Notes: a model not told the origin generated them from the letters alone. Shown: positions 4,393-64,000, counted from the first letter of the stretch. The stretch is DNA of 64,000 nt from Pseudomonadota bacterium (GCA_022571365.1 JACZXZ010000002.1:14402-78401); one strand, 5' to 3'. Program-made: numbers and translations.

Positions 4393-5079
4393 ATGTTCGA
4401 CCTCGGTTGGTCCGAAATGATGATCATCGCCACGGTGGTGCTGATCATCTTCGGACCGAAGGACCTGCCGAAGGTCCTCAAGACCGCGACCTTTTGGATG
4501 CGCAAGGGCCGGGCGCTCGCCAAGGAGTTCCGGAACGGTCTCGATGAAATAGTCCGGGAAGCCGAACTGGATGAGCTCAAGAAGGACCTCGAATCGGCGA
4601 CGCGCTACGACCTGAAGGGGGAGATGGAAAAAACCATCGACCCGACCGGCAGCCTCGTCAAAGCCCTCGATGCGCCGGACGAACTCACCAAGTCGAAGGC
4701 CGAACCCGCGGCGGCGGGCGACACCGAGGCCAAGCCCAAGGCCGAACCCGCGGCGGCGGGCGACACCGAGGCCAAGCCCAAGGCCGAACCCGCGGCAGGG
4801 GACGACACCGAGGCCAAGCCCAAGGCCGAACCCGCGGCGGCGGGCGACACCGCGGCCAAGCCCAAGGCCGAACCCGCGGCGGCGGGCGACACCGCGGCCA
4901 AGCCCAAGGCCGAACCCGCGGCGGCGGGCGACACCGCGGCCAAGCCCAAGGCCGAACCCGCGGCGGCGGGCGACACCGCGGCCAAGCCCAAGGCCGAACC
5001 CGCGGCGGGGGGCACATCGAGGCCCAGACGAGGGAAGGCGAATCGAAGGCCGGCGGTGGAAAACGCGAGGAGCCGCTAA
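4393..5079 (+). CDS. tatB: Twin-arginine translocase subunit TatB with repetitive C-terminal extension
   Basis: MFDLGWSEMMIIATVVLIIFGPKDLPKVLKT... TatB-type N-terminus; C-terminal half is 7 tandem copies of KAEPAAAGDT(E/A)AKP. Confidence 0.8.
   Translation: MFDLGWSEMMIIATVVLIIFGPKDLPKVLKTATFWMRKGRALAKEFRNGLDEIVREAELDELKKDLESATRYDLKGEMEKTIDPTGSLVKALDAPDELTKSKAEPAAAGDTEAKPKAEPAAAGDTEAKPKAEPAAGDDTEAKPKAEPAAAGDTAAKPKAEPAAAGDTAAKPKAEPAAAGDTAAKPKAEPAAAGDTAAKPKAEPAAGGTSRPRRGKANRRPAVENARSR
4696..5010 (+). repeat. 42-bp tandem repeat, about 7.5 copies, inside tatB coding sequence
   Basis: AAGGCCGAACCCGCGGCGGCGGGCGACACCG(A/C)GGCCAAGCCC repeated head-to-tail; copies 1-3 carry GAG, copies 4-7 GCG, copy 3 carries AGDD variant. 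Confidence 0.9.
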
Positions 5080-20676: not shown

Positions 20677-23598
20677 TTGACCACGCCGCCCGCACCGCCT
20701 GAATACGACATCACGATCGTGAGCCTCGAGGAGGAGATGAAGCACTCCTACCTCGACTACGCCATGAGCGTGATCGTGGCCCGCGCGCTGCCCGACGTGC
20801 GCGACGGGCTGAAGCCGGTCCACCGCCGCATCCTTTACGCCATGAAGGAGGGCGGCTACGACCGGGCCAAGCCGTTCCGCAAGTCGGCGCGCATCGTCGG
20901 CGACGTCATGGGCAAGTACCACCCCCACGGCGACGCCGCCATCTACGACGCCATGGTGCGCATGGCCCAGGATTTCTCCATGCGGCTCATGCTCATCGAA
21001 GGGCAGGGCAATTTCGGCTCCATGGACGGCGACCCGCCGGCCGCCATGCGTTACACCGAGGCGCGGCTCGCCCGCTCGGCCGAGGCGATTCTCGAGGATT
21101 TCGACAAGGGCACGGTCGACTTCAAGCCCAGTTACGACGGCAACGCCCAAGAGCCCGCCGTGCTGCCGGCCCGGTTTCCCAACCTGCTGGTCAACGGCGC
21201 CGGCGGTATCGCCGTCGGCATGGCGACCAACATCCCGACCCACAACCTGGGCGAGGTGATCGACGCCTGCTGTGCCTACGTGGACAATCCTGAGATCACC
21301 ATCGACGAGCTGATGGAGCACCTGCCGGGGCCGGACTTCCCGACCGCCGGCATCATACTCGGCAGAACGGGCATCCACGAAGCGTATCACACCGGTCGTG
21401 GCTCCATCGTCATGCGCGGACGCGCCGAAATCGAGGAGATCCGCAAGGATCGCCAGGCCATCGTCATCACCGAGATCCCGTATCAGGTCAACAAGTCGCG
21501 GATGGTCGAGCGCATCGCCGAGCTGGTTAGGGATAAGACCATCGAGGGCATCGTCGATCTGCGCGACGAGTCCGATCGCCACGGCGTCCGCGTGGTGGTC
21601 GAGGTCAGGCGCGATATCATCCCCGAGGTGGTGTTGAACCAGCTCTACCGTTACACGCCACTGCAGACCAGCTTCGGCGTCAACATGCTGGCCTTGAACC
21701 GCGGCCAGCCGGAGATGATGAATCTCAAGGACATCATCGCCCTCTTTATCGACTTCCGCGAGCAGGTCATCACCCGGCGCACGATATTCGAACTCAACAA
21801 AGCGCGGGCGCGCTCCCACATCCTGCTCGGCCTCGCCATCGCCGTGATCAACCTGGATCCGGTGATCGCGCTGATCCGCAAGGCTTCCGATCCGGCGGCC
21901 GCGCGGGCCGCGCTCAGGAAGCCGCCGTGGCCGGCCGGCGAGATGGAGGCGCTGATCCGCATGATCGACGAGCCGGAACAGAGCCTTAAGGACGGCGCCT
22001 ACCGCCTGTCGGAAGAGCAGGCGAAGGCGATATTGGAGCTCAGGCTCCATCGCTTGACCGGGCTCGAGCGCGACAAGATCGTCGAGGACTTGAAGGCGCT
22101 CGTCGATCAGATCTCCGGATATCTCGAGATCCTCGGCTCCCGGGAGCGCCTTTTGGAGATCCTGCGCCGCGAGCTTCAGGAGATGAAGGAGGAATTCGCG
22201 ACCCCGCGCCGCACCCAGATCGAGGAGATCGAGTTCGAGCACGACATCGAGGACCTGATCCAGCGCGAGGAGATGGTCGTCACCGTCACGCACACCGGCT
22301 ACATCAAACGGGTGCCGCTGTCGACCTACCGGGCGCAGCGCCGCGGCGGCAAGGGCCGGGCCGGCATGGCCACCCGCGAGGAGGACTTCGTCAGCCAGGT
22401 CTTCGTCGTCAACACCCACACCCCGGTCCTGTTCTTCTCCTCGCGCGGCATCGTCTACAAGATGAAGGTCTACAGGCTGCCCTTGGGCGCCCCGCAGGCG
22501 CGCGGCAAGGCGCTGGTCAATCTGTTGCCGCTGGAGGAGGAAGAGACGATCACCACCCTGATGCCCATGCCCGAGGACGAGCAAAGCTGGGGCGAACTCC
22601 ACGTCATGTTCGCCACCTCGGCCGGCCATGTCCGGCGCAACAAGCTGTCGGATTTCGTAAACGTCATGGCCAAAGGCAAGATCGCCATGAAGCTCAAGAA
22701 CGGCGACCAGCTCGTCGGCGTTCAGACCTGCACCGAGGACGACGACGTGTTGTTCGCCACCGGCGGCGGCAAGTGCATCCGCTTTCCGGCCACCGACGTC
22801 CGGGTGTTCAGCGGCCGCTCCTCGATCGGCGTCAGGGGCATCAGACTAGCCTCGGGCGATAAGGTCATTTCGATGTCGATTCTCACCCACATCGCAGCCG
22901 ACCCGAAGGATCGGGAGGAATACCTGCAAGCAGTCAACGCCAAGCACCGGCTTGCCAGCACCGAGTACACCGGCAAATCGGAGGAGAAAGCCCGCGATGA
23001 GCAGCGCGCCGCGCGGCTTGACGAGCAAAATTTCGTCGAGATGGCCGAGCACGAGGAGTTCATCCTGACGGTTGCCGAGAATGGTTTCGGCAAGCGTACC
23101 TCGGGTTACGACTACCGGATCGCCCGGCGCGGCGGCAAAGGCATCGGCAGCATGGAGCTGGAGCGCGACGGGAACGCCGTGGTCGCGGCGTTTACTGTCA
23201 CCGACGACGATCAGATCATATTGATGACCGACGGCGGGCAGATCATTCGATGCCCGGTGAATGACATTCGCGTCGCGCGGCGCGCCACCAGGGGAGTCAC
23301 CGTGTTCAAGCTCGCGGAAGGCGAGAAGGTGGTGTCGGTGTCGCGCCTCGGTGACGTCGGCGTCGAAGGCGACGGAGAAGAAGCAGGCGACGGAGAAGAA
23401 GCAGGCGAGGGCGAAGAGGCGGCGGACGGAGCGGCGGAATCGGAGGCGACGACCGTGGAGGACGACGGCAAGGGGGATGGTGGAGCGACGGCATCGGAGG
23501 CGACGGCCGTGGAGGACGACGGCAAGGGGGATGGTGGAGCGGCGGAATCGGAGGCGACGGCCGTGGAGGACGACGGCAAGGGGGACGGAGAACAATGA
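20677..23598 (+). CDS. gyrA: DNA gyrase subunit A
   Basis: 973 aa; [36 protein letters not shown] region, active-site Tyr region (AAMRYTE), C-terminal beta-pinwheel repeats and acidic tail; TTG start at 20677. Confidence 0.97.
23380..23590 (+). repeat. Tandem repeats encoding the GyrA acidic C-terminal tail (18-bp x2 then ~60-bp x3)
   Basis: GGCGACGGAGAAGAAGCA x2; GGAGCG(A/G)CGG(C/A)ATCGGAGGCGACG(G/A)CCGTGGAGGACGACGGCAAGGGGGATGGT x3 giving [16 protein letters not shown] repeats. Confidence 0.85.
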
Positions 23599-47315: not shown

Positions 47316-48926
47316 ATGCCCGGGCTCCAGCCCGCTAACCGAACGGCCTACTATATCACCACGCCGATCTACTACGTGAACGACGCCCCCCACATCGGTC
47401 ACGCGTACACGAGCCTTGCCTGTGACGTGCTGGCCCGGTTCATGCGGCTCGACGGCTACGAGGTCAAGTTCCTGACCGGTACCGACGAGCACGGCCAGAA
47501 GGTGGAGAAGTCGGCCACGGCGGCGGGGATGGAGCCAGGGGCCTTCACCGACAAGATGTCGGAGAACTTCCGGACGCTCTCCCACGCCATGAACTTCAGC
47601 AATGACGATTTCATCCGGACCACGGAGCCGCGCCACATCGCCGCTTGCCAGGCCCTGTGGCGGGAGTTGAAGGCGCGCGACCAAATCTATCTCGGCGTCT
47701 ATGCCGGCTGGTACGCGGTGCGCGACGAGACGTACTACACCGAAAGCGAGGTCGTCGAAGGCCCGGACGGCAAGAGGGTGGCCCCGACCGGGGCCGAGGT
47801 CGAATGGGTCGAGGAGCCGAGCTATTTCTTCCGGCTTTCGGCCTGGCAGGAGCCGCTTTTACAGCTCTACGAGGACAATCCCGACTGCATCGCGCCCGAC
47901 AGCCGGCGCAACGAGGTCGTCAGCTTCGTCAGGAGCGGGCTCAAGGATCTGTCCATCTCCCGCACCAGCTTCAAGTGGGGCGTGGCGGTTCCCGACGACC
48001 CCGACCATGTCATGTATGTCTGGCTCGACGCGCTCACCAATTACATCACCGCGGTCGGCTATCCGGACGCGGAAGGGAAGGGGTTCACCCGCTTCTGGCC
48101 CGCCGACCTGCACGTGGTGGGCAAGGATATCCTCCGGTTTCACGCGGTCTACTGGCCGGCCTTCCTCATGGCCGCGGGACTCGAGCCGCCCAAGCGCGTT
48201 TTTGCCCACGGCTGGTGGACCAACGAAGGCCAGAAAATCTCCAAATCCCTGGGCAACATCATCGAACCCCTGCATCTGGTGGAGGAATACGGGCTCGACG
48301 CGGTGCGCTATTTCCTCCTGCGCGAGGTCCCCTTCGGCAATGACGGCGATTTTTCCCACCGGGCCATCATCGGCCGCGTCAATGGGGATCTCGCGAACGA
48401 CTTCGGCAACCTCGCCCAGCGCGTGCTGTCGATGATCCACAAGGACTGCGGGGGACAGGTGCCAGATCCGACGGACAAGGTGGATTACAAAAGGGATGCC
48501 GAGTCCCTGAGCGCATTGACCGGCGCCCATGAGCTGATCGGATCGCTGCGGCCAATCATGGCTCGTCAGGCCTTTCACGAGGCGCTTGAGTTGATCTGGG
48601 ACGTCGTTCGTGAAGCGAACCGTTATGTCGACAAACAGGCGCCTTGGGCGTTGAGGAAAACGGATCCCGCGCAGATGGATGCCGTTCTCTATGTCCTGGT
48701 GGAAGTCCTGCGCCATCTGGCGATCGTGCTTTGGCCGTTTATGCCTGGTTCATGCGACCGCCTACTGGACCAGCTTGCCGTCCCGAAAAAGGCGCGCGAC
48801 TTTGACTGCCTGACGACCGACCCCGATCGCTTCAGGAACGCTCACTCGCTTAAACCAGGGACCGCCCTGCCCAAGCCCGAAGGCGTCTTCCCGCGCTATG
48901 TGGAGGCGAAGGAGAAGACCGCGTGA
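47316..48926 (+). CDS. metG: Methionyl-tRNA synthetase (short form without C-terminal tRNA-binding domain)
   Basis: HIGH motif (APHIGHAYT), KMSKS motif (KISKSLGN), 536 aa. Confidence 0.95.
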   Translation: MPGLQPANRTAYYITTPIYYVNDAPHIGHAYTSLACDVLARFMRLDGYEVKFLTGTDEHGQKVEKSATAAGMEPGAFTDKMSENFRTLSHAMNFSNDDFIRTTEPRHIAACQALWRELKARDQIYLGVYAGWYAVRDETYYTESEVVEGPDGKRVAPTGAEVEWVEEPSYFFRLSAWQEPLLQLYEDNPDCIAPDSRRNEVVSFVRSGLKDLSISRTSFKWGVAVPDDPDHVMYVWLDALTNYITAVGYPDAEGKGFTRFWPADLHVVGKDILRFHAVYWPAFLMAAGLEPPKRVFAHGWWTNEGQKISKSLGNIIEPLHLVEEYGLDAVRYFLLREVPFGNDGDFSHRAIIGRVNGDLANDFGNLAQRVLSMIHKDCGGQVPDPTDKVDYKRDAESLSALTGAHELIGSLRPIMARQAFHEALELIWDVVREANRYVDKQAPWALRKTDPAQMDAVLYVLVEVLRHLAIVLWPFMPGSCDRLLDQLAVPKKARDFDCLTTDPDRFRNAHSLKPGTALPKPEGVFPRYVEAKEKTA

Positions 48927-49738
48927 CGCTGGTGGACAGCCACTGTCATCTCGATTTTCCGGATTTCGCGGGCGAGCTCGACGCGGTCATCGCCCGGGCC
49001 GCCGCCGCCGGTGTCGGCGTCATGGTGACGATCTGCACCAAATTGAGCGCCTTCGATCGGGTGCTCGCCATCGCCGAGACCCATGACAACGTCTATTGCT
49101 CGGTCGGGGTCCACCCGCACGAGGCGGCGGGCGAGGGGGTAGAGGAACCCGATCGCCTGATCGCGCTGGCACGTCATCCCAAGGTGGTCGGCATCGGCGA
49201 GACCGGACTCGACTACCACTACGAGCACAGCCCAAGGGAGGCCCAGCAGGAAAGCTTCCGAGCCCATATCGGCGCGGCGCGGGAGACGGGCCTGCCACTC
49301 ATTGTCCATACCCGCAAGGCCGATGAGGACACCGCCCGGATTCTTCGGGAGGAAACCGCGATCGGACCGTTTACAGGCCTCATACATTGCTTTAGCACAT
49401 CTAGAGAACTAGCTGAAATTGCTATGAAACTTGGATTCTACATCTCCCTTTCGGGGATCGTTACCTTCGAGAAAGCCGGCGATCTTCGGGCAATTGTCCA
49501 GAATCTGCCGCTCGAGAGGCTCCTGGTCGAGACCGACGCACCCTACCTGGCGCCGGCACCGATGCGGGGTAAGCGGAATGAACCCGCCTTCGTCGTCCAC
49601 ACGGCCGAGGCCGTCGCGGCGCTCAAAGGAATGGCGCCGGAGGCTTTTGCGCGGGCGACCAGCGATAACTTCTTCCGCCTGTTCCAGAAGGTCCAGACGC
49701 CAACGTCCGCGCGGCTTTCCGCAACGGCACGCGGGTAA
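48923..49738 (+). CDS. tatD: TatD family metal-dependent hydrolase
   Basis: VDSHCHLDF start, conserved His/Glu/Asp metal ligands (GVHPHEA; GETGLDYHY; HCFS; ETDAPYL). Confidence 0.9.
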   Translation: MTLVDSHCHLDFPDFAGELDAVIARAAAAGVGVMVTICTKLSAFDRVLAIAETHDNVYCSVGVHPHEAAGEGVEEPDRLIALARHPKVVGIGETGLDYHYEHSPREAQQESFRAHIGAARETGLPLIVHTRKADEDTARILREETAIGPFTGLIHCFSTSRELAEIAMKLGFYISLSGIVTFEKAGDLRAIVQNLPLERLLVETDAPYLAPAPMRGKRNEPAFVVHTAEAVAALKGMAPEAFARATSDNFFRLFQKVQTPTSARLSATARG

Positions 49739-50020
49739 CCATTGCGGGCCGCGAGGACGGCGAAGTAGCCACCGCCGCAGACCACCACAGCGCTTGGATA
49801 GGGACGGTTCGAGGGAACGGTTCGAGGGGCCGGATTCCTCGAACCCTTGGACAGAGGTCAAAACAACCCTTATTATTTACCATAATATACATTATGCGCT
49901 AAATTTATATGGCGGCATCGCCCGCCGGGCCAAGCGCCCTCTCGCCTTCCTCCCCGCTCCCTCTGTCCACCAATTTTCCCGGCCGATGGCACCGCTCACG
50001 GTGAAAGGTCTCGATTAACC

Positions 50021-50120
50021 GCTGAATCCCGTTGAATCCCGTTGAATCCCGCTGAATCCCGTTGAATCCCGCTGAATCCCGTTGAATCCCGCTGAATCCC
50101 GCTGAATTCTGCTGAATCTT
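50021..50120. repeat. 10-bp tandem repeat array (G[C/T]TGAATCCC), 8 perfect + 2 degenerate copies
   Basis: GCTGAATCCC GTTGAATCCC GTTGAATCCC GCTGAATCCC GTTGAATCCC GCTGAATCCC GTTGAATCCC GCTGAATCCC GCTGAATTCT GCTGAATCTT within an ~850-bp non-coding gap. Confidence 0.9.
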
Positions 50121-50595
50121 GCAACATCTCCCGGCTAGCTCCAGAGCATGGAGCGCCTGAGAGACCCCGAGCATGGCTGATCTTTGTCGTTCCGAGCCGA
50201 CAACGCATCGCTCCTCAAGGAGCGCGCTACGCCAGGGTATGTATAATAGGTTCCAATGGTCCAGGCCGCGGTGATGGCAGGCGCGGTGGACCGTCCACCG
50301 GATAACCCGGGTTCTCCTCCTGCCAGGGCGCCGAACACACCCGCCGCGGCCAACCGGAGCCCGTAGCAAGGCAAACATCGCCAAGCCGGGCTCTGCACCT
50401 GGTCTCGCGGCACGCTCTTGGACCGCTACGCGCCAGCGACGACCTAACCACCCCGGTGCCCGAGCCCGGCGGCACCCCAGAGCCCCGCCACGGCTACGCC
50501 AAGAGCCCCCAACAGTGCGGCAGCCGATGAGAATTTCGATATTGACGCCGTGGGCACGCGGTCACGGGCCCGGCGCCGGCGCGCGGGACCGAGCC

Positions 50596-51402
50596 TCAGT
50601 CGGCGGCGAACCTGTCCCGAAGCATCCGCCAACTCGCCTCATCAGGGGCAAGCAGGAAGTTGCCGGCGGTGAGCGTCGGCCGGTAGGGCGTGCCGTCGAG
50701 GCAAGCGTTGTAACCGCCGGCCTCGCCGTGAATCAAAGCGCCCGCGGCGTGATCCCAGGGCCAAAGCCGGGTGAACAGGCCGAAATGCGTCTCGCCGCGG
50801 GCCAGCGCCAGATATTCGTGGCCGACGCAGCGGCGGTAAATGGCGGCGCCGAGTCCCTTCTTGCGCTCGGCGAGGTCGGGCGTAATTCCAGGCCGGCCTG
50901 GGCGGGCATAGACGGCGCCCCGCATTTGCTCCGGCGCGGCGGCCGCGGCGACGTGCAGACGCCGCTTCCCAATCCAGACCCCCTCGCCTTGCGCGGCCAT
51001 CACCGTCTCGCCGCCGAGCGGATCGTGAATCCAGGCGGCCGCGGTGCGCCCGCGCACGACAAAGGCCACTATCATGGCGAACGGTGGCTTGCCGTCGGCG
51101 AAATTGGCCGTGCCGTCCAGGGGATCGATGATCCAGACGGGCGCTTTGCCCGCGAGATTGCCCAGGATCGTCGGGTCCTGATCGACCGCTTCCTCACCGA
51201 CCACCAACGACCCCGGGATGAGCTCCCGGAACGCGCGCGTCAGCCGCCGCTCGGCGGCCAGGTCGGCTACCGTGACCAGGTCGCCCGGCTGTTTCTCCCT
51301 CACCTCGCTCGCCGCGAGCCGCTTGAAGCGCGGCAGGATATCGACCGCGGCGGCCTCGCGGATCAACCGCTCGACCCTGTCCATATCGGGTGTCATAGGC
51401 AT
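50596..51402 (-). CDS. Inositol monophosphatase family protein
   Basis: WIIDPLDGTANF metal-binding motif and second Asp motif region; start at MPMTPDMDRV (ORF track extends through an upstream duplicated segment). Confidence 0.8.
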   Translation of the reverse strand: MPMTPDMDRVERLIREAAAVDILPRFKRLAASEVREKQPGDLVTVADLAAERRLTRAFRELIPGSLVVGEEAVDQDPTILGNLAGKAPVWIIDPLDGTANFADGKPPFAMIVAFVVRGRTAAAWIHDPLGGETVMAAQGEGVWIGKRRLHVAAAAAPEQMRGAVYARPGRPGITPDLAERKKGLGAAIYRRCVGHEYLALARGETHFGLFTRLWPWDHAAGALIHGEAGGYNACLDGTPYRPTLTAGNFLLAPDEASWRMLRDRFAAD

Positions 51403-51530
51403 GTTCGACGGTAGCACGGACGCTCGGAAGAAAAAGGGGCCGCGCGGATCAACCGCTCGACCCTGTCCATATCGGGTGTCATAGGCATGTTCGACGGTAG
51501 CACGGACGCTCGGAAGAAAAAGGGGCCGCG
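51359..51530. repeat. 86-bp perfect tandem duplication covering the IMPase start codon region and half of the groEL terminator
   Basis: CGGATCAACCGCTCGACCCTGTCCATATCGGGTGTCATAGGCATGTTCGACGGTAGCACGGACGCTCGGAAGAAAAAGGGGCCGCG present twice head-to-tail (51359-51444, 51445-51530). Confidence 0.9.
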
Positions 51531-53212: not shown

Positions 53213-53500
53213 CTATTCGATAATACCGATAATGTCAGACTCTTTCATGATCACGAGGTCCTCTCCCTCGATTTTGACCTCGGTGCCCGACCACTTGCCG
53301 AACAGCACGCGGTCGCCCTTCTTGACGTCCAGGGGACGGAGCTTGCCGTCCTCGCCGAGCGTGCCCGCGCCGACGGCTTTCACCTTGCCCTCCATGGGCT
53401 TTTCCTTAGCGGTGTCGGGGATAATGATGCCTCCCGTGCTCTTTGCATCCTTCTCCAGGGGCTTGATCAGCACACGGTCATGTAGCGGTCTGAATTTCAT
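53213..53500 (-). CDS. groES: Co-chaperonin GroES
   Basis: 95 aa; [16 protein letters not shown] start, mobile loop, [13 protein letters not shown]. Confidence 0.97.
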
Positions 53501-53544
53501 TGAGGCACCTCCTTGGTTGTCGGCCTGAGCTCAAGTCCGGATTG

Positions 53545-53571
53545 TTAGCACTCCGGGGAAGTGAGTGCTGG
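53545..53571. promoter_or_regulatory. CIRCE (HrcA operator) inverted repeat in groES leader
   Basis: TTAGCACTC-CGGGGAAGT-GAGTGCTgg matches TTAGCACTC-N9-GAGTGCTAA except the last two bases. Confidence 0.75.
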
Positions 53572-53572
53572 C

Positions 53573-53601
53573 TATATAAGAGGTGCCTCTGGCCTTGTCA
53601 A
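53573..53601 (-). promoter_or_regulatory. Sigma-70-type promoter of groESL (TTGACA-N17-TATATA on minus strand) immediately upstream of CIRCE
   Basis: Reverse complement of 53573-53601 reads TTGACAaggccagaggcacctctTATATA. Confidence 0.5.
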
Positions 53602-53674
53602 CCGGGTTTGTCGGGCGAGATCTGAGCGGTCCCGGCAGCACCAGAGGCCTTGGTTTCAAAGAGAATCAGCGCGC

Positions 53675-54988
53675 TCAATGATACCGGTCCCGTGCCCGGT
53701 GTTCGAACCGGGCGATGTCGGCGGCATTGAGGCTGACTTTGAAATGTGCGAAGCCCGCGTCGTCGTGGCGGCTTAGCACCTCGCCACGGTCGTAGAGCCA
53801 GGCCATGGCTGCGCCGTCCGCCAGATCCACGGTGAGCTCGACGATTTGGCGAGATGCCCTGAGCCGTCCGTCGATCAGTGTCAGCAGCGTATCCAGGCCC
53901 TCGCCGGTGAGCGCCGAGGTGGGGACTGCGTGGCCGTTGCGCCGGGCCTGATTGTAGGCCCCCCGCTTCGCTTCGTCGTCGAGCAGATCGAGCTTGTTCA
54001 ACACTTCGATCAGGCCGCTGTTCACCGCGTCGCCCAGGCCAAGGTCGCGGAGCACCCTGTGGACATCCTCCTTCTGCTCCGCGCTATCGGGATGGGCGAT
54101 ATCGCGCACGTGAAGGATGACATCGGCCTGGCGAACTTCCTCTAATGTGGCTCGGAACGCCGCCACCAAGTCGGTCGGCAGATCGGAGATGAAGCCCACT
54201 GTGTCGGACAGGATGACCGGGTGGCCCGAGGGCAGCTTGAGGACGCGCATGGTCGGATCGAGCGTCGCGAACATGAGATTCTTGGCATCCAGCTCGGCCT
54301 TGGTGAGGCGATTGAACAGGGTTGATTTGCCAGCGTTGGTGTAGCCGACCAGTGAGATGATCGAATACGGCATCCGCCGGCGCGCGTGGCGGTGGAGCCC
54401 GCGGGTCCGCTTGACCCCCTCCAGCTCACGCTTCAGCCGCGCGATTCGCTCACCGATGAGCCTGCGGTCCACTTCGATCTGAGTCTCGCCCGGCCCGCCG
54501 ATGAAGCCATAGCCGCCGCGTTGCCGTTCCAGGTGGGTCCAGCTCCGTACCAGGCGGCTTCGTTGATAGGACAGGTGCGCCAGCTCGACCTGCAGGCTGC
54601 CCTCCCGCGTGCGCGCCCGCTCGCCGAAGATTTCGAAGATCAAGCCGGTGCGGTCGATCACCTTGCAGTCCCAGGCGCGCTCAAGGTTACGCTGCTGAAC
54701 GGGCGTGAGGCCGGCATCCACGATCGCCACTTCCACCCTTTTCGCCTTGACCAAGGCGGCGAGGGTTTCCACCACGCCGGCGGCGAACAGAGTCGCCGGG
54801 CGCGGCCGGTTCACCCGGATCGTGTCCGTGTGGACAACCGTGAGATCGATGGCATGGGCAAGGCCGATTGCCTCCTCCAGCCGCGCCTCGGGTGTCCGTC
54901 CGGCCTCTCTCGCCGACTTGAGAACAGGATGCAGGACTACCGCCCGGCCTGTCGATGGTGCCTCGCGAGAAGGGAGGTTGCGCGTCAA
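53675..54988 (-). CDS. hflX: GTPase HflX
   Basis: N-terminal HflX domain, G1 GYTNAGKSTLFN, G3/G4 motifs; directly downstream of hfq. Confidence 0.92.
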   Translation of the reverse strand: MTRNLPSREAPSTGRAVVLHPVLKSAREAGRTPEARLEEAIGLAHAIDLTVVHTDTIRVNRPRPATLFAAGVVETLAALVKAKRVEVAIVDAGLTPVQQRNLERAWDCKVIDRTGLIFEIFGERARTREGSLQVELAHLSYQRSRLVRSWTHLERQRGGYGFIGGPGETQIEVDRRLIGERIARLKRELEGVKRTRGLHRHARRRMPYSIISLVGYTNAGKSTLFNRLTKAELDAKNLMFATLDPTMRVLKLPSGHPVILSDTVGFISDLPTDLVAAFRATLEEVRQADVILHVRDIAHPDSAEQKEDVHRVLRDLGLGDAVNSGLIEVLNKLDLLDDEAKRGAYNQARRNGHAVPTSALTGEGLDTLLTLIDGRLRASRQIVELTVDLADGAAMAWLYDRGEVLSRHDDAGFAHFKVSLNAADIARFEHRARDRYH

Positions 54989-54989
54989 A

Positions 54990-55241
54990 TCAGCCTTCGT
55001 CGTCCTCCTTGTCCGGTTCGAACAGCTGGATTGCTCCCGTCGGCATCACCGTCGAAATGGCGTGTTTGTAAACCAACTGGGAATGGTGATCGCGGCGCAG
55101 GAGCATGGAGAAATTGTCGAACCAAGTGATGTTTCCCTGAAGCTTGACGCCATTGATCAGAAAGATGGTCACAGGCGTCTTGTTCTTGCGGACGTGGTTC
55201 AAGAACACGTCCTGCAGGTTCTGTGATTTTTCTGAGGGCAT
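54990..55241 (-). CDS. hfq: RNA chaperone Hfq
   Basis: 83 aa; Sm1 ([11 protein letters not shown]...[13 protein letters not shown]) and Sm2 (YKHAIST) motifs. Confidence 0.97.
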
Positions 55242-55366
55242 CGGTAACTCCGCTCATTTGGTCTTCTGGACCAGCCAGGCAAAGGCCCTGGCCCTCCCCG
55301 CTTGCCGGATGCGAACGGTCATCCCGCGCGAGTCGGTCTTCTACTTCAATATGAAAATATGGGGCC

Positions 55367-56020
55367 TTACGGGTCCCGCACAAGGGCGGCGAACGCCGAG
55401 CACCCGCTGATCCACCTGTCCGGCTGCGGAGCTGTGATCCCAGCCATCTCCGGCTGCGCTTCGCCCATCAGCACGGCCGTGCAGCCGGCGTTGCGCGCGC
55501 ATTCCACGTCAATGGCCGCGTCACCGACGAACCATACCGCCGGACCGCGGGGGATGCCGCTGCCGGCGAGCGCCAGCTCGACCGCCGCCACTGCCGGCTT
55601 GTCCTCGGCCGCGTCCATCGCCCCCACCATCCGGGCAAAATAGGCTGCCCAGTTCAGGTGGACCGCCTCCCGGCGCAACAAGTCGCCGCGCTTGTTGCTG
55701 ACGACACCGAGATAGATGTCCTCGGCCGCAAGCCCAGCCAGCATCTCGGCGGCGCCGGGCCGCGCCGTGAGAGTCTCGAGATGGTTGGCGGTAAAGCGGT
55801 CGTAAAAGATCCTCGTCGCCTCGTGCCAGCGCTCGCCGAATACCCGGGGGAAGCTGTTGCGCGCGGACTCGCGCACCCGTGCTCGCACCTCCGCCCGGTT
55901 CCAGGGCTCATGGCCCATGGCGACGAGGGTGGCGTTGAGAGCCTCGTAAATGGCCGCCCAGTTGTCCACCAGAGTGCTGTCCCAGTCGAACAGTATGGCG
56001 CGGGGACGATTGAGTCTCAT
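55367..56020 (-). CDS. HAD superfamily hydrolase (phosphoglycolate phosphatase-like)
   Basis: DxDxT motif ILFDWDSTL, S/T motif (GVVSNK), K and DD motifs (KP...VGDAAID). Confidence 0.75.
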   Translation of the reverse strand: MRLNRPRAILFDWDSTLVDNWAAIYEALNATLVAMGHEPWNRAEVRARVRESARNSFPRVFGERWHEATRIFYDRFTANHLETLTARPGAAEMLAGLAAEDIYLGVVSNKRGDLLRREAVHLNWAAYFARMVGAMDAAEDKPAVAAVELALAGSGIPRGPAVWFVGDAAIDVECARNAGCTAVLMGEAQPEMAGITAPQPDRWISGCSAFAALVRDP

Positions 56021-56886
56021 CCCAGGTGGGGAGCCGGCGCACCCGCCATGTGGGCGAGATAGAGATCACGTATTTTCAGGGTCAGCGAGCCGGGCTTTCC
56101 ATTGCCCACGACCGCGTCGTCGATACGCACGACCGGAAGCACCAGGGAGGTCGTGCTGGTGAGAAACGCCTCGCGGGCGGCCTTGGCCTCGCCCACGGTG
56201 AAGGGCCGTTCCACGAACTCGACGCCGTTACGGCGCGCCAGATCGAGCACCGAAAGCCGGGTGATGCCGCCCAGGATCGCGGTGTCGGTCGAGCGGGTGA
56301 TCAACAGGCCGTCGCGGCCGACAATCCAGGCATTGGTCGAGGTGCCTTCGGTGATGAAGCCGTCCCGATCAATCTGCCAGGCCTCGAATGCGCCGGCCTC
56401 TTGGGCAGCTTGCTTGCCCAGCACGTTGGGCAGCAGGGACACTGACTTGATATCGCAGCGCCGCCAGCGAATGTCCGGGATCGTGATGACGGTGACGCCA
56501 TCCTGGGCAAGACGCTCGCGATGAAGATCCGTTTGCCGAGCCGTCATCACCAACGCGGTCTTGTTTTGCGCCGGAAACGCGTGCTCGCGGGGGGCGGTGC
56601 CACGGGTCGCCTGGATGTAGAGGATGCCGTTCACGACGCGATTGCGGCGCACCACCTCGCGCATAACGATCGTGAGCGACCGGCGTGACAGCGGCGGCGC
56701 GATCCGAAGCTCGCGGAGCGAGCGTTCGAGGCGGTCGAGGTGGGACTCTTCGTCGATCAGTCGGCCGCCCTCAACCGCGATCACTTCATACACCCCGTCC
56801 GAGAACTGGTAGCCGCGGTCCTCGATATGCACGGCGGCCCGCCGGTGGGGGAGGTATTGGCCCTCGACATAGGCGACGCGGGACAT
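56017..56886 (-). CDS. dat: Class IV (D-amino acid / branched-chain) aminotransferase
   Basis: FSDGVYEV and catalytic Lys region (RCDIKSVSLL), EGTSTN motif; 289 aa; 4-bp overlap with downstream HAD gene. Confidence 0.8.
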   Translation of the reverse strand: MSRVAYVEGQYLPHRRAAVHIEDRGYQFSDGVYEVIAVEGGRLIDEESHLDRLERSLRELRIAPPLSRRSLTIVMREVVRRNRVVNGILYIQATRGTAPREHAFPAQNKTALVMTARQTDLHRERLAQDGVTVITIPDIRWRRCDIKSVSLLPNVLGKQAAQEAGAFEAWQIDRDGFITEGTSTNAWIVGRDGLLITRSTDTAILGGITRLSVLDLARRNGVEFVERPFTVGEAKAAREAFLTSTTSLVLPVVRIDDAVVGNGKPGSLTLKIRDLYLAHMAGAPAPHLG

Positions 56887-57033
56887 GATCTATGCCGCCT
56901 TTACGCCGCCCTAGAGATAGCTGGCGATGTGATCGCCAGCCTCACGGTTTCGGGACTCTCGGAACCAGCCCCCGGACAGGGCGCGCCGCGGCAACGCCTC
57001 CGGTGCGCCCCAGCCCGGTTCGCCCTCGGCCCA

Positions 57034-58410
57034 TCAGAAAAATTCAAGGCGCACCGCGAACATCTTTTCGACCTTCTTGACAGTGCGTTCCGTAGCAAAG
57101 ACGACCACGCGGTCGCCGACGCTGACGACCGTGTCGGGGCGCGGGATGATCACCTCGCCCGCCCTCAGGATGGCGCCGACGATGACCCCCTTGGGAAGCT
57201 TGATCTTCCGCAAGGGTGCGCCGATCAGGCTGGATGTTTCCAGGGCTTCCGCCTCGATGATCTCGCCGAATCCTTCGCGCAGGGAGTGCACCGAGAGAAT
57301 CCGCCCGCGGCGGACATGCTGCAGGATGGTGGAAACCGTGATCGCGCGCGGGCTCACCACCACATCCACGCCCAACGTGGTGATCAGCGGCTCGTAGGCC
57401 ATGTTCTTGATCAGGGTCACCGCCCGCTTGCAGCCGGACCTCTTGGCCAGCAGCGAGGACAGGATGTTGACCTCATCATCGTTGCTCACCGCGACGATGG
57501 TTTCGGCCGCCTGTACGTTGGCCTCATCGAGGATCTCCGGATCGAGGGCATCGCCGTTGATGACCAAGGTCCGGGGCAACATTTGGGCGATGTGTTCGGC
57601 CCGATCCGAGTCCATTTCGATGACCTTGGCGGTCACGCCCGGATGGTGAGCTTCGATCTCCTGGGCGAGGTACAGGCCGATATTGCCGCCGCCGGCGATG
57701 ACCACGCGCCGCGCCTCGCTCTCCTCATGGCCGAACGCCGCCATGCCGCGGGCGACGTGATCGCTGTCGACCACGAAATACACGTCGTCGCCGGGCAGCA
57801 TGACCTGGTCGCTGGTCGGGACGAATGGCCGGTCCTCCCGGATGATACCGACGACCACGATATTGAGATCGGGGAACAACTCGGTCAGCTCTCTCAGCGG
57901 CGTGTCCAGGATCGGGCAGTCATTTGTGCAGCGGACCCCGATCACCCTGATCTTGCCGTCGGCCAATGGAATCATGTCGAACGCGCCCGGCGCTTGAAGC
58001 CGGCGGCTGATCGCCCGGGCCACCTCGATCTCCGGCGAGATGATCACATCGATCGGCAATTGATCGCGGCTGAACAGGTCGGCCCAGATCGGCTGGAGAT
58101 AGCTTTGATGGCGCACGCGGGCGATCTTGGTCGGCACGTTGAACAGCGAGTGCGCGACCTGGCAGGCGACCATGTTCACCTCGTCGGCATAGGTCACCGC
58201 GATGATCATGTCGGCATCGGCGGCACCGGCCCGCTCAAGGACATGAGGATGCGAGGCATAGCCGACCATCGCCTGGACATCGAGCGAATCGCCGATCCTG
58301 CGAATCAGCTCGGGCGACTTGTCGATCACGGTAACGTTGATGTCTTCCGCCGCCAGGTGACGGGCAATGCTAAAGCCCACCTGTCCGGCGCCGCAGACGA
58401 TGACTTTCAT
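57034..58410 (-). CDS. trkA: Trk potassium uptake system protein TrkA (tandem RCK/NAD-binding)
   Basis: MKVIVCGAGQVGFSIARHL Rossmann start, second Rossmann half VVIAGGGNIGLYLAQEI; 458 aa. Confidence 0.9.
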   Translation of the reverse strand: MKVIVCGAGQVGFSIARHLAAEDINVTVIDKSPELIRRIGDSLDVQAMVGYASHPHVLERAGAADADMIIAVTYADEVNMVACQVAHSLFNVPTKIARVRHQSYLQPIWADLFSRDQLPIDVIISPEIEVARAISRRLQAPGAFDMIPLADGKIRVIGVRCTNDCPILDTPLRELTELFPDLNIVVVGIIREDRPFVPTSDQVMLPGDDVYFVVDSDHVARGMAAFGHEESEARRVVIAGGGNIGLYLAQEIEAHHPGVTAKVIEMDSDRAEHIAQMLPRTLVINGDALDPEILDEANVQAAETIVAVSNDDEVNILSSLLAKRSGCKRAVTLIKNMAYEPLITTLGVDVVVSPRAITVSTILQHVRRGRILSVHSLREGFGEIIEAEALETSSLIGAPLRKIKLPKGVIVGAILRAGEVIIPRPDTVVSVGDRVVVFATERTVKKVEKMFAVRLEFF

Positions 58411-58460
58411 CGGCTAAATCCCCTCGCCGTCAATCCCGCTGGACGGTCGGGCTCAGCGGT

Positions 58461-59867
58461 TCAGGCGTCGAATTTGTGAGACTTCTGCCCGCCGTAGACG
58501 CCGAGCGACTTCAGCTTGCGGTGCAGGGCGGAGCGCTCCATCCCGATAAATGCCGCCGTCCGCGAGATGTTGCCGCCGAAGCGCGTAACCTGCGCCATGA
58601 GATACTCCCGTTCAAAGATTTCGCGTGCCTGGCGCAACGGCAGTCCCATCACTTCGCCGCTCTTTTCCCAACGCAGCACGGGGGGGGTGATGCTACTGAT
58701 CTCGGGCGGCAGCATGTCGGCGCGGATCGGCTGGTCGGCTTTGCCGGGCGCCATGATCAGCAGCCACTCAACGACGTTGCGAAGCTGGCGCACGTTGCCG
58801 GGCCACTCATAGGCCTGGAGCGCGGCCAGGGTGTCGTCGCCCAACTTGCGCGCCGGCAGGCCGGCTACCTCGGCTATCAACGCCATGAGGTGTCGGGCCA
58901 AGAGCGGGATGTCCTCGCGCCGCTCCGTCAACGGCGGCACCCATAGCGGAACCACGCTCAGGCGGTAGTACAGGTCCTCGCGGAACCGGCCGGCGGCGAC
59001 TTCCGCCTGCAAGTCGCGGTTGGTCGAGACGATCACCCGAACGTCGACCTCGACGCCGGCTCGACCGCCGAGGCGCAGGAAGGTCTGTTCCTGAAGCACG
59101 CGAACGATCTTACCCTGCGTTTCCAGCGGCATATCCGCGACCTCGTCGAGCACAAGCGTCCCGTTATGGGCTTGCTCGAAGGTTCCGACCTTGCTCGGCG
59201 TGCCGGCCCCTGCCCCGCCCGGCTCGATCCCGAACAACTCGACTTCCATCCGATCGGGCTGCATCGTCGCGCAGTTCAGAATAACGAACGGCCCGTTGCC
59301 GCGGCGCGAGCGCCCATGCAGCAGCCGTGCGATCATCTCCTTGCCCACGCCGGCCGGTCCCGTGATCAGGACCCGGCTGCTGGTGGGCGCGACGCGATCG
59401 ATGGCCTGGCGCAGCTGGTTGATCACCGCGGACTTGCCGATGAGTTCCGAACCGACGCCCGCCCGCAATCTCAGCTCTTCGTTTTCGCGCCTGAGACGCG
59501 CCGCCTCGATGGCGCGCTCGACAATGACCAGCAGGCGGTCGGCCTTGAATGGCTTCTCGATGAAGTCGTAGGCCCCCTTCTTGATCGCGGTCACGGCGGT
59601 CTCGATGTTGCCATGGCCGCTGATCATCACCACCGGAACCGAGGGGTGCTCGTTCATGACGATGCCGAGGACCTCGAGTCCATCCAGTTTGCTATCCTGG
59701 AGCCAGATATCGAGGATCACCAGGTTCGGCCGCCGGCTTCGGACGGCCTCAAGCGCGCTCTGGCCGTCGGCCGCCTGGCGGGTGTGGTAGCCCTCATCCT
59801 TGAGGATGCCGGCGATCAACAACCGAATGTCGGTTTCGTCATCGACGATCAGGATATCATGAGCCAT
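58461..59867 (-). CDS. ntrX: Sigma-54-dependent response regulator NtrX
   Basis: Receiver domain ([11 protein letters not shown]...), AAA+ sigma-54 activation domain (GPAGVGKE; GAFTGA-like region; ESELFGHE equivalents), C-terminal HTH; start overlaps ntrY stop. Confidence 0.88.
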
Positions 59868-62166
59868 CGTCAGTCGTCTTCGTGGTTGGTGAGTGAGGAG
59901 TGTCAACAGACGGGGTTTCGTCTTGTGGCGCCTGGTCCTCGCCCGCGTCGAAGACCAACCTGACCCGGGCGCCGCCGCCCTCGCGGTCCTCCAGGGTTAG
60001 GTCGGCACCGTGATCTTCCATGATTTTCTTAACGATCGCCAGCCCCAGACCGGTGCCATTGCTGCGGGTGGTCACATACGGTTCGGTGTACTGATCGCGC
60101 TCCTCCGACGGGAAACCGGTGCCGTTATCCTCGATCTCGATGACGACCCGGCCCTGGTGGGGCTCGGCGACGCGGACGACGACACTACCCGGCGGCGGCT
60201 TCGAGGTGGAAGACGACTCGCGGCTCAGGATCGAATCGATCGCGTTCTGCAACAGGTTGGTCAGGGCCTGGCCGAGCTGGCGCCCGTCGCACCGCAGCAT
60301 GATGGCTCGATCCGGGAGCTCGACCGAAAACGCGATGTCGGGATGGGCGCTCTGTTGCAGGAATATGGCTTGCCGGCACAGCCCGGAAAGGTCCTCCGAC
60401 TTCATGACCGGTGCCGGCATCCGGGCAAAGGCCGAGAACTCGTCGACCATGCGCTCGATATCGCCGACCTGCTGGACGATGATGTCGGTGCAGGCTTTGA
60501 AGATCTCCGGGTCGCTCTTGATCTGCTTGAGATATTTGCGCTTCAGCCGCTCCGCCGAAAGCTGGATCGGGGTCAGCGGATTCTTGATCTCGTGGGCGAT
60601 GCGCCGGGCCACGTCGGCCCAGGCGGCCTGGCGCTGCGCGGTCAACAGCTTGGTGACGTCATCAAAGGTAACCACAAAGCCTTTGGCCTCGTCGTCGACG
60701 CGCTCCGCGGCGATCCGCACAAGGAGGGTCCGCGTGTGGCCGGAGCGGGTGATCTTGATCTGCGATTGGACGAGCCGCAAGGGATGGCGACGGGCGGACT
60801 CGATCAGCTCGGCCATCTCCGGCAGGGCCTTGGCCAGTTTCTGTCCGATGAGCTGCTCCACATTTACCGATAGCAAGCGAGAGGCCGACCGGTTGAGGAG
60901 GTTGATCCGCCCCGCACGGTCGAGACCGATCACCCCCGCCGAGACGCCCTCGAGCACAGTTTCGGTGAAGCGCCGCCGGATGTCGAGCTGGCGATTGGCT
61001 TCCACCAGCTCGCTCCGCTGGGTCGCAAGCTGGCTGGTCATGCGGTTAAAAGCGCGGTTGAGCGAGCCGATCTCGTCGGTGTCCGGTCCATCGGCCACAC
61101 GGACCGTGAGGTCTCCGGCCCTCACCTGCTCGGTCGCGGTGATGAGGCGGCTGATCGGCCGTACCAACCGCGTGGCGAAGGCGAGTCCGACCCAGATCGC
61201 GGCGAGCAGCAGCAGCAACGCGCCCGCGGTGAAAATCATGACGAAGGTGATCTGCAGGCCGGAGCGCCGGCCCTCCAGCTGTTCATAGATGGCGACGGCG
61301 GTCTGGGTCCGCTCGATATGGCCCAACACCCCGGGTTCGACAAAGCGGCCGACGATCAGGAATGTATCGAGGAAGGGGTCGAGCTGGACCAGCGCGCGCA
61401 CCCGGTCGTCCGCCTCGCTGGTAAGGATGGCAATCTCGCCGTTGCGGGCCTTCTCGAGCGCCCAGACCGGCAGCGGCTCGAACTCGAGGGCGAAAGTGAG
61501 GCCCGAACGGGCGAACACCCGGCCTTTAGCGTCGAAAATCAGCGCTTCCGAGAGGGATCTGAGCGCCGCCTGGGCGGCGACGAACTGCTGGAACCGGCCT
61601 GGATCCTGCATCGACAGCAGGCTCTCGCGACGAAGGTCGTTCCCCATGGCCAGGACGTCGGAGCGGATGTTCTGCTGATGCTCGTCCAGATAGGCCTCGG
61701 TCACGGCGAGGGACTCCTTCAGCGCCGTGCGCACCCGCTCGCTGAACCACGCCTGGACACCGAAATCGAAAAACAGCACCGAAAACACCGAGACCGCAAT
61801 GGCCGGCGTCACCGCCACCAGGCTGAACAGCAGGACCAGCCGAACATGCAGCCTTGAGCCGGCCGAACCGCGGCGGCGCTCGGCCCAGACTTGGACGATG
61901 CGCCGAGCGATCACCGTGCCCAGCAGCAGCAGCACCACCAGATCGACGTTGAGCAGCAGGAGGACCGTGTCCGGATCGGGCCCCAATGGCGGCGAGCCGG
62001 TCAACGCGGCATAGGTCGCGATACCCGAGAGGATGGCCGCCGCCGTCAAGGCAAAGGCCAGCTTGCGCGCTAGACCGACGCGGTTCGCCCAACGCATCAA
62101 TTGCACGGAAAGTTCGCTTGGCGCTCCGGCAGAGTCGACCGTCATCGTGAAACCCGTCGCGGGCAC
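59857..62166 (-). CDS. ntrY: Sensor histidine kinase NtrY
   Basis: 769 aa; N-terminal TM segments, HAMP, PAS, H-box [18 protein letters not shown], HATPase G-boxes (DNGTGF; GTGLGLAIV). Confidence 0.9.
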
Positions 62167-62212
62167 CCCGGCTCCATGGGCGCTGTGTCGCTGTGGTGCG
62201 GTTGAACGGCGG

Positions 62213-63094
62213 TCATTTTACGCCCCGGGCCACCCGGATGTCCAATTTGCGGATCTTCTTTCTCAATGTGTTGCGGTTGAGGCCGAGCAATCGCGCCGCC
62301 TTGAGCTGGTTGCCCCGGGTCGCCTTCAGGCTCAGGGAGATCAGCGGCCTCTCGACCTCGCGCAGCACCCGCTCATAGAGCCCGGTCGCCGGCAGGCCGC
62401 CCCTGTGGGCGTCGAAATAGGCCTTTAAATGATGTTCGACCGCCTGGCCCAGATTGCCGTCTTCCGGTGTCCCCGCCGGGGTGGGCGGCGCCGTGACATC
62501 GGCCAGCTCAGCCTCGATGATATCGACCCCAATGACCTCTTCCGCGTGCAGCACGGCGAGGCGCCGGATCAGATTCTCGAGCTTGCGGTCCGCATCCGAT
62601 GCGTTCTGTTCCAGGAGCTGCGCCGCGCCGCGAATGCCCGAAAGCGGGGTCTTGACCTCGTGGGCCAAAAGCGCAGCCATCGCCGTCACCGAACGGGCCG
62701 CGTTGCGATGCGTGGGCTGCCGATCGATCTTGCGGGCGATCGACTGTTCGTGAAGCCAGACCACGATCCGGTCCGGGAGTTCGGCGAGCGGCGCCGCTTG
62801 AATCGCCACCAATCGGGCGCCCATGCGCGGCGTCTCCAGGGTGACGCCGTATTCGGAAACGCCGGCGCCATGGGCGCGGACCTGCTCAAGCAACGCGAAC
62901 AGCGGGCTGTCCGCGGGGATGAGGTCGTGCAGCGGCCGCCCGCGCAAGTTGGCGGCGCTGGTGTCGAAGAACTGCTCCGCCGCCATGTTGACATAGCCGA
63001 TGCGGTCCTCGGGACCGATCACCAGCACCGGACCGGCCAGCGCGTTCAAGACCGCGCCGGCGTCGACTTCGAGCCGGTCCTCGCGTTGCCGCAC
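62213..63094 (-). CDS. In-frame NtrB'-'NtrC fusion ORF: NtrB N-terminal PAS + H-box (DHp) joined to NtrC C-terminal AAA+ lid remnant + Fis-type HTH; probable deletion derivative of ntrBC
   Basis: N-terminal part [30 protein letters not shown] (NtrB PAS) and [20 protein letters not shown] (H-box); C-terminal part [28 protein letters not shown] ... [31 protein letters not shown] (NtrC end). No HATPase, receiver or sigma-54 AAA+ core. Only ~0.94 kb lies between dusB stop and ntrY start. GTG start at 63094 is tentative. Confidence 0.7.
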
Positions 63095-63108
63095 GGAGAG
63101 CCCGCCGG

Positions 63109-64000
63109 TCACGCCGCCATCTTCTCCATGACCGGGGCTTTCTCCATGACCGGGGCATAGAAGGCGCGAATCGCCGCGCGTACCGCCCCGGGGTCCGCGA
63201 GGCGGTTGATCCCGGCGCGGAACTCGGCCGAGCCGGGAAGACCCCTGCTGTACCAGGCGATGTGTTTGCGCGCCATGCGCACGCCGGCTTCGGCGCCATA
63301 GTGGATCATCATGTCCTCGTAATGGTCCAGCACGGTTTGGAGCTGCTCCCTGAGCGACGGGGCGGCCAGGCGCTTTCCGGTCCTCAGGAAATGGATGACC
63401 TGCCTCAGAAACCACGGCCGGCCACAGGTGCCGCGGCCGATCATCACGCCGTCGGCTCCCGATTCGGCGAGACATTGCTTGACCTCCTCGAGCGAGGTGA
63501 TGTCGCCGTTCGCAATCACCGGGATGTGCACCGCCTCCTTCACTTCTCGGATGAACTTCCAGTCCGCCCGTCCCCGATAGAGCTGGCAGCGGGTGCGCCC
63601 GTGGACCGTGATCATCTGAATGCCGCAGTCCTCGGCGATTTTGGCAAGGCTGGGCGCGTTGCGTGCGCACTCGTCCCAACCGGTCCGCATCTTCAGCGTC
63701 ACCGGCAGGTCAACCGCCTCGACCGTGGCCTCGAGGATGCGCGCGGCGTGGACCTCGTCGCGCATCAGAGCCGATCCGGCATGGCCCTTGACCACTTTCT
63801 TGACCGGACAGCCGAAGTTGATATCGATGATCGCGGCCCCCCGGTCCTGGTTGAGCTTGGCCGCCTCCGCCATGACCTCGGGCTCGTAGCCGGCGAGCTG
63901 AACCGCCATGGGGTGTTCCTCGGCGCAGTTCGACGACATTTTCATGGACCGGCGAGTCCGGCGGACCATGGCCTGGCTGGCGATCATCTCGGAGACGACA
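63109..64000 (-). CDS. dusB: tRNA-dihydrouridine synthase B (NifR3), N-terminus beyond window
   Basis: [12 protein letters not shown] catalytic Cys motif, TIM-barrel FMN sites (TVHGRTR; IANGDI); ORF runs to window edge. Confidence 0.9.
63122..63157. repeat. 18-bp tandem duplication in the 3' end of dusB (adds APVMEK to C-terminus)
   Basis: TTCTCCATGACCGGGGC(T/A) x2; translates on minus strand as ...[15 protein letters not shown]. Confidence 0.85.

Follow-up and report, generated by a model that had tools for sequence, protein, structure and literature searches.

A chromosomal dif site, flanked by variable tandem repeats, very probably marks the replication terminus of an uncultured alphaproteobacterium

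The closest described counterpart of the locus analysed here is the chromosomal dif site, a 28-bp sequence with two partly palindromic 11-bp arms and a 6-bp centre that is known from E. coli and from Alphaproteobacteria, reportedly including Caulobacter, where it is said to have been described by Jensen in 2006. The site serves the Xer/FtsK dimer-resolution pathway, as outlined in PMC3130261 and PMC2800217. The hallmarks of dif are a low G+C content, an intergenic location and proximity to the GC-skew maximum (PMC2731167); the published E. coli dif is GGTGCGCATAATGTATATTATGTTAAAT, and the alphaproteobacterial sites listed include those of M. magneticum, CGTCGCCATAATATACATTATGCGACAA, and B. quintana, AAATTCCATAATATATATTATGCGATAA (Carnoy & Roten 2009, PMC2731167 Table 1). 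Several other kinds of systems share particular features with the present locus, namely, the plasmid Xer sites cer and psi, in which accessory sequences adjoin the XerC arm and 100-200 bp of non-coding DNA lie on the XerC side of the core; the IMEXs, integrative mobile elements exploiting Xer (CTX-phi, TLC-phi and the gonococcal genetic island), which are clade-specific DNA adjoining dif; intergenic variable-number tandem repeats, that is, minisatellites as used in MLVA typing; and contingency loci, which are hypermutable repeat tracts with strain-variable copy numbers. The central region of cer consists of 8 bp.

The window, by which we mean the whole 64-kb stretch of alphaproteobacterial DNA that was analysed, contains an 857-bp gene-free gap (49739-50595) between two convergent genes. 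On the left is tatD (48923..49738, plus strand; Pfam TatD_DNase, E 3.8e-89), the last gene of a plus-strand block, with metG (methionyl-tRNA synthetase) upstream of it; on the right is an inositol monophosphatase (IMPase) family gene (50596..51396, minus strand; Pfam Inositol_P), the last gene of a minus-strand block, which has its stop at 50596, encodes 266 aa as called in related contigs, and has the genes for GroEL and GroES on its far side. Within and near the gap, the G+C content falls to 0.48-0.49 in 100-bp windows at about 49800-49950, compared with approximately 0.65-0.70 nearby. The first-pass annotation of this DNA had drawn attention to the gap, to a 10-bp array, to a repeat with an inverted copy and to an AT-rich patch, all of which we found in the places it gave; it had put the G+C content at 68%, whereas the window average is actually about 65-66%, and it did not recognise the AT-rich patch as dif.

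When the gap was compared by BLAST with 80 TatD-homologue loci, one per alphaproteobacterial species, a single short stretch, gap positions 133-167, was found to match in more than 20 of the loci, and this stretch is the AT-rich patch. On the minus strand, the patch contains TTAGCGCATAATGTATATTATGGTAAAT, which has 19 consecutive bases in common with the E. coli K-12 DNA between yneL and hipA; of 5426 complete E. coli genomes, 5386 contain this 19-nt match, each of them a single time. The complete 28-bp XerC/XerD chromosome dimer resolution site (49875..49902, minus strand) reads TTAGCGCATAA-TGTATA-TTATGGTAAAT, with the XerC arm TTAGCGCATAA at 49902..49892, the 6-bp central region TGTATA at 49891..49886 and the XerD arm TTATGGTAAAT at 49885..49875. 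It is identical to the published E. coli dif in 24 of the 28 positions, and the mismatches are located in positions 1-3, in the outer XerC arm (TTA versus GGT in E. coli), and 23 (G versus T), which are the variable ones according to PMC2731167. The conserved A at position 25 is present, and the M. magneticum and B. quintana sites, taken on the opposite strand, are nearly identical to that of the window. Its G+C content is 0.25 (7 of the 28 bases) in a window of approximately 66% G+C, and it is intergenic. Taken as a whole, the gap can be interpreted with considerable confidence as follows: the AT-rich patch is the chromosomal dif, and the rest is fast-changing non-coding DNA whose repeats most likely have no role of their own.

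The site is both conserved among species and unique in the window. A pattern search detected the dif motif downstream of tatD, in one constant orientation, in the loci of 47 of the 80 alphaproteobacterial species, at a distance of 0.8-4 kb from tatD; in the Mesorhizobium locus, one of the 47, 27 of the 28 positions agree with the published M. loti dif. With a position weight matrix (PWM) built from 45 distinct sites out of the tatD-anchored loci, the window dif scored 43.6 bits, the next best site in the 64-kb window only 6.8 bits, and shuffled sequence at most 7.2 bits, so the PWM scan of the window revealed no second or degenerate copy. A second AT-rich patch in the gap, TATGTATAATAGG (50236-50262), was considered as a dif candidate and rejected, being neither dif-like by the PWM nor conserved (it reads GTATGTAGGTTC in L093).

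Closer comparisons were made with two sets of contigs. Same-species metagenome contigs, found by exact-protein look-ups, are 98.3-99.3% identical to the window over 7-11 kb, most of them with an identical TatD, and more distant relatives, found by a TatD homologue search, include L093-L095 (about 96% DNA identity) and L096 (90% TatD identity). The dif sequence is identical in L096 and in every same-species contig that spans the site, and differs by one base in L093-L095. In relatives at 74% TatD identity, the dif 28-mer is the sole sequence in common with the gap. Within the species, about 100 bp that include dif and an adjacent hairpin are invariant in six contigs, and constraint outside the 28-mer is possible. 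A search of the JGI metagenomes for the exact pattern of dif plus its flank produced no match.

Across the alphaproteobacterial loci (among L007-L086), there appears to be an ancient linkage of metG, tatD, a gene for an MBL hydrolase and dif, often with mazG past dif (e.g. L021 6080-6107, L046 5628-5655 and L062 8119-8146). In most Alphaproteobacteria, tatD and dif are separated by this MBL-fold hydrolase gene; in the clade of the window, the gene is missing, and only 136 bp separate the tatD stop from dif.

In common with the chromosomal dif sites of E. coli and Alphaproteobacteria, the site, which occurs once in the window and is low in G+C and intergenic, lies where gene orientation and GC skew switch. 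In a composition-based gene map, 31 putative genes to the left of the gap are on the plus strand and 9 on the minus strand, the last 10 all being on the plus strand, and to the right there are 10 minus-strand genes and one plus-strand gene. Cumulative G-C reaches its peak of about +215 at 42-48 kb and, after approximately 49 kb, descends to -36 by 64 kb. The skew itself is weak (+0.006 on the left, -0.025 on the right); its change of sign falls no more than a few kb from the gap, and its plateau starts several kb ahead of dif, as seen within a view of only 64 kb. Of the 6 copies of GGGNAGGG, the motif that orients FtsK in E. coli, 5 point toward dif, a number too small to carry weight. The right flank (53213-63987) encompasses dusB, three large ORFs, a class-IV aminotransferase, a HAD-hydrolase and hflX, and then the groES-groEL-IMPase genes, all on the minus strand and pointing toward dif. 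We regard it as very probable that the chromosome of this uncultured alphaproteobacterium has its dif locus, and with it the replication terminus, in this gap; tatD and the IMPase gene would then converge because the two replication arms meet at the gap.

A plasmid Xer site is unlikely because the neighbours are chromosomal housekeeping genes, namely, tmk, holB, metG, secDF, groESL, hflX, dusB and two tRNA genes. The locus further differs from cer and psi in that distant relatives lack a conserved flank, and from cer in that the central region consists of 6 bp, as in chromosomal dif.

By analogy with the known pathway, the arm at 49892-49902 would be bound by XerC and that at 49875-49885 by XerD. 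FtsK, moving along the DNA toward dif as the septum closes during cell division, would activate XerD for the first strand exchange, and XerC would complete the exchange across the 6-bp centre, so that a chromosome dimer would be converted into two monomers. We assume that XerC, XerD and FtsK are present in this organism: xerC, xerD and ftsK were not encountered among the 17 window ORFs scanned against Pfam, a further set of 10 among them consisting entirely of housekeeping genes, and such recombinase and translocase genes are usually located in other parts of the chromosome.

The most conspicuous feature of the rest of the gap is a 10-bp variable-number tandem repeat, GYTGAATCCC, at 50019..50118, 116 bp from the XerC arm of dif (TRF period 10, 10.0 copies, 90% matches). 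It consists of 8 exact units (50021-50100) and two degenerate units at the 3' end, and the motif occurs elsewhere in the window only at the chance level. The first-pass annotation had proposed a comparison of copy numbers among relatives, and the counts indeed differ, from 5 to 13 units. The window has 10 units, in which GCTGAATCCC and GTTGAATCCC alternate; L003 has 13 units, with GGTGAATCCC repeated 9 times; L004 has 6, and L001 and L092 have about 5 each; in L002, the array is broken by an N-run; and L093-L095, as well as L096, have about 5 diverged units. These numbers come from short-read metagenome assemblies, several of which are broken or contain N-runs within the arrays, so the exact counts are uncertain; the copy-number variation itself is real, as shown by the differing units that are expanded. 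Comparison of the units indicates that the ancestral array apparently comprised about 5 already diverged units, followed by independent expansion of different internal units in each strain. The expansion of different units in different strains implies slipped-strand mispairing. As for the repeat unit elsewhere, three consecutive units were detected in four unrelated loci of the JGI metagenomes, with about 3 copies each, and in none of the sequences of a viral contig collection. L089, an unrelated JGI metagenome contig of 67% GC, has a degenerate array at 1-150 in which a similar 10-bp unit, CCAGTTGAATCCCGTTGAATCCC..., recurs about 14 times.

In its architecture, the array resembles intergenic minisatellites: the short units are arranged head-to-tail, those at the end are degenerate, and both the copy number and the identity of the expanded unit vary between strains that are 98-99% identical. 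It differs from them in that it is located directly beside dif and is accompanied by two or three more polymorphic duplications (of 13, 14 and 86 bp) within about 1.6 kb. The suggestion of a contingency (phase-variable) locus does not hold because the array lies in no ORF or promoter, so that changes in copy number switch nothing; unlike the tracts of contingency loci, it is placed where the convergent tatD and IMPase genes face each other with their 3' ends.

On the XerD side, 26 bp from dif, there is a 13-bp tandem repeat, ACGGTTCGAGGGA, in 2.3 copies, with an inverted copy (49800..49848). TRF delimits the repeat at 49800-49828 with period 13, and ACGGTTCGAGGG occurs in it twice, at 49804-49815 and 49817-49828; the inverted copy, with arms at 49816-49827 and 49837-49848, yields a hairpin of 9-12 bp. 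The predicted fold of 49790-49870 has an energy of -30.5 kcal/mol and is not exceptional (z = -1.45). Across the related contigs, this repeat ranges from 1 to about 7 copies: there is one in L093; two in the window, L001, L003, L004, L094 and L095; three in L002; four in L092; and 6-7 in L096. In L096, the 6-7 copies (L096 805-880), together with a 14-bp tandem duplication, CCTGTCCACCAATT (L096 1014-1041), in the spacer between dif and the 10-bp array, represent two further independent tandem expansions beside dif. The spacer itself (49903..50018 in the window) is non-coding and differs between strains by indels of 1, 2, 5 and 6 bp.

Beyond the 10-bp array, the block 50119..50204 is the best-conserved part of the gap apart from dif, with 92% identity to L094 and L096, compared with 75-87% in the other gap segments and 87-90% in third codon positions of tatD. 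It is followed by a segment of about 235-245 bp (50207..50451), bounded by short CGACGAC direct repeats, that is absent from L001 and L002 and present in the window, L003, L004, L092 and L093-L096; because the more distant relatives have the segment, its absence is a deletion. The second AT-rich patch belongs to this segment. Inside it, the palindrome GGTGGACCGTCCACC (50283-50297) is represented by GGTGACCGTCACC in L092, L094 and L096, with one base fewer in each arm and the palindrome still perfect; either selection has kept a change in both arms, or one template-switch mutation has altered the two together. Over the 7-11 kb compared, nearly all indels fall within the gap, and many of them are of 1, 2 or 5 bp; the many lengths that are not divisible by 3 leave no reading frame intact in the gap.

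Together, the 10-bp and 13-bp arrays, the 14-bp duplication and the deletion of about 240 bp are best accounted for by replication slippage or by break repair between short direct repeats, with slippage and short-homology deletion acting in what is the region's sole non-coding tract of any size. The E. coli terminus has been reported to be a spontaneous fragile site (PMC8213236), and recurrent breakage followed by repair may here, too, add to the dynamics of the repeats. The arrays, along with the 86-bp duplication nearby and the deletion, are suggestive, and no more than that, of DNA around dif that would be unusually prone to slippage or break repair, which would fit the E. coli reports. The repeats themselves most likely have no function of their own, a neutrality that we argue from the absence of evidence for one.

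Polymorphism is not limited to the gap. A tandem duplication of 86 bp (51352-51530; 2.1 copies, 98% match) takes in the spacer between groEL and the IMPase gene, together with the 5' end of the latter, with two copies in the window and L001 and one in L002, L092, L093 and L094. Tandem repeats that are coding and in-frame were observed in large ORFs at 4688-5024 (42 bp x 8.0, 95% match) and at 23428-23585 (54 bp x 2.9). Divergence is strongly asymmetric across dif: on one side, third-codon identity in tatD (49139-49738) is 0.905 with L094 and 0.869 with L096, and on the other, identity in the 3' 500 nt of the IMPase gene (50596-51095) is 0.984 and 0.980, respectively. This asymmetry suggests a recombination breakpoint or a sweep boundary at or near the dif gap.

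Among the alternative interpretations of the DNA around dif, an origin from a mobile element has to be considered because dif is a known hotspot for the integration of such elements. Under this scenario, which we consider very improbable, the DNA that extends for roughly 690 bp from dif on its XerC side, the 10-bp array included, would be a decayed IMEX that integrated via the Xer recombinases. The stretch lacks a coding signal and is clade-specific, given that only the 28-mer is held in common with the relatives at 74% TatD identity, and both features would be compatible with a remnant of this kind. However, unlike the known IMEXs, the stretch amounts to only about 690 bp, contains no genes and is not flanked by a second dif-like site, the best other PWM score in the window being at the chance level; no ORF and no pseudogene similarity was detected in it, and its repeat pattern was not matched in the viral contig collection. 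Moreover, every lineage of the clade has the segment, which leaves no empty site to prove an insertion. The pseudogene search, a tblastn comparison of the gap with 5866 ORFs from the 80 related loci, returned only noise, with all scores below 30 bits. The decayed insertion remnant envisaged in the first-pass annotation accordingly finds no second dif-like site, ORF or pseudogene trace to build on.

A different possibility, and in our assessment a very improbable one, is that the terminus makes use of the tandem arrays as accessory elements, with the 10-bp array serving as a binding or methylation platform and the 13-bp repeat as a guide or stop for FtsK. GANTC is the target of the CcrM methyltransferase in Alphaproteobacteria, and this sequence, in the form GAATC, is contained in 9 of the 10 units of the window array, which results in 9 GANTC sites per 100 bp compared with at most 3 in any other 100 bp of the window. 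The platform could then be pictured, although with very little likelihood, as 10-bp units spaced one per helical turn, most of them carrying GANTC, that would be bound, for example, by a terminus-organising protein or would mark completed replication. Conceivably in line with such a role, lineages with as little as 90% TatD identity have at least 5 units at a constant distance from dif, variation within the unit is lowest in its GAAT core, and the DNA around dif, hairpin included, is invariant within the species. Yet the high density of GANTC in the array follows trivially from the repetition of the unit, several units in other strains lack the motif (GAATT, GAATA, AAATC), and GANTC usage over the window is unremarkable, with 180 sites observed and 201 expected. 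Likewise, the range from 5 to 13 copies, with different units expanded, fits slippage better than it fits a tuned platform, and the hairpin in L093 shows no compensatory change. No substantial tandem array was identified within 1 kb of dif in the 47 other alphaproteobacterial species, in which only two-copy repeats at the chance level were seen. The terminus-binding protein ZapT of Caulobacter has no defined motif for comparison (PMC7188993), and chromosomal dif is reported to need no accessory sequences (PMC2731167). Hence it is hardly to be expected that the arrays flanking dif on either side have a function specific to the terminus, whether in modulating Xer/FtsK or in marking the terminus in this lineage. 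In a weaker version of the same idea, the clustering of the arrays might record a mutational process that is specific to the terminus, such as break repair at dif; if so, this process would be readable from natural populations.

The least probable reading, to which we attach almost no likelihood, is that the gap encodes a small RNA or contains a promoter that transcribes through the repeat: a sigma-70-like site, TGGACA-17-TATTAT (49848-49876, plus strand), the relatively good conservation of the block 50119-50204 and the paired one-base change that keeps the GGTGGACCGTCCACC palindrome perfect can be cited for it, but the -10-like hexamer, which ends one base before the XerD arm, reflects the AT-rich sequence bordering dif, and conservation of the -35 region does not extend to other species. 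L093 and L096 have lost a TATAAT in the second AT patch, at 50242, the change in the palindrome is one event and could come from template switching, and the searches for RNAs and terminators in the gap were negative. Specifically, in an Rfam scan of the whole window at gathering thresholds, a check that had been proposed in the first-pass annotation, no family reached the threshold in the gap, and when the gap alone was searched at E-values up to 10, the best sub-threshold hits had E-values of 3.2-5.8; one of the candidates, a SAH riboswitch at 50119..50204, scored 15 bits against a threshold of 37, which is the chance level, and the fold of this block is not significant. A tRNA/tmRNA scan found none in the gap, and the proposed search for Rho-independent terminators detected no terminator-like site there. 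RNA folding of four gap segments on both strands gave z-scores of -0.08, -0.51, +2.99 and -1.39, none of them significant, the plus-strand RNA of the array being less structured than shuffled sequence (z = +2.99). Coding potential is similarly lacking: the gap ORFs (159, 92 and 82 aa) have no Pfam match and no coding composition, and their frames are broken by strain indels. Of the proposals made for this gap before our analysis, the variation in copy number is thus borne out, and the small RNA, promoter and contingency interpretations are not.

To summarise what the preferred interpretation, a chromosomal dif amid neutral repeats, means, this is a well-known element in a fresh instance, from a poorly sampled alphaproteobacterial lineage, and knowledge of Xer recombination is unchanged by this locus. 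The repeat arrays provide a ready marker for strain typing. With dif in this position, the length of the gap, the convergence of the genes and the AT-rich island are all accounted for, and no new element needs to be postulated. Recognition of dif also fixes the replication terminus of an uncultured alphaproteobacterium, for which the nearest species-level genome shows only 71% TatD identity, and offers annotators an anchor for the replichore structure of its chromosome.
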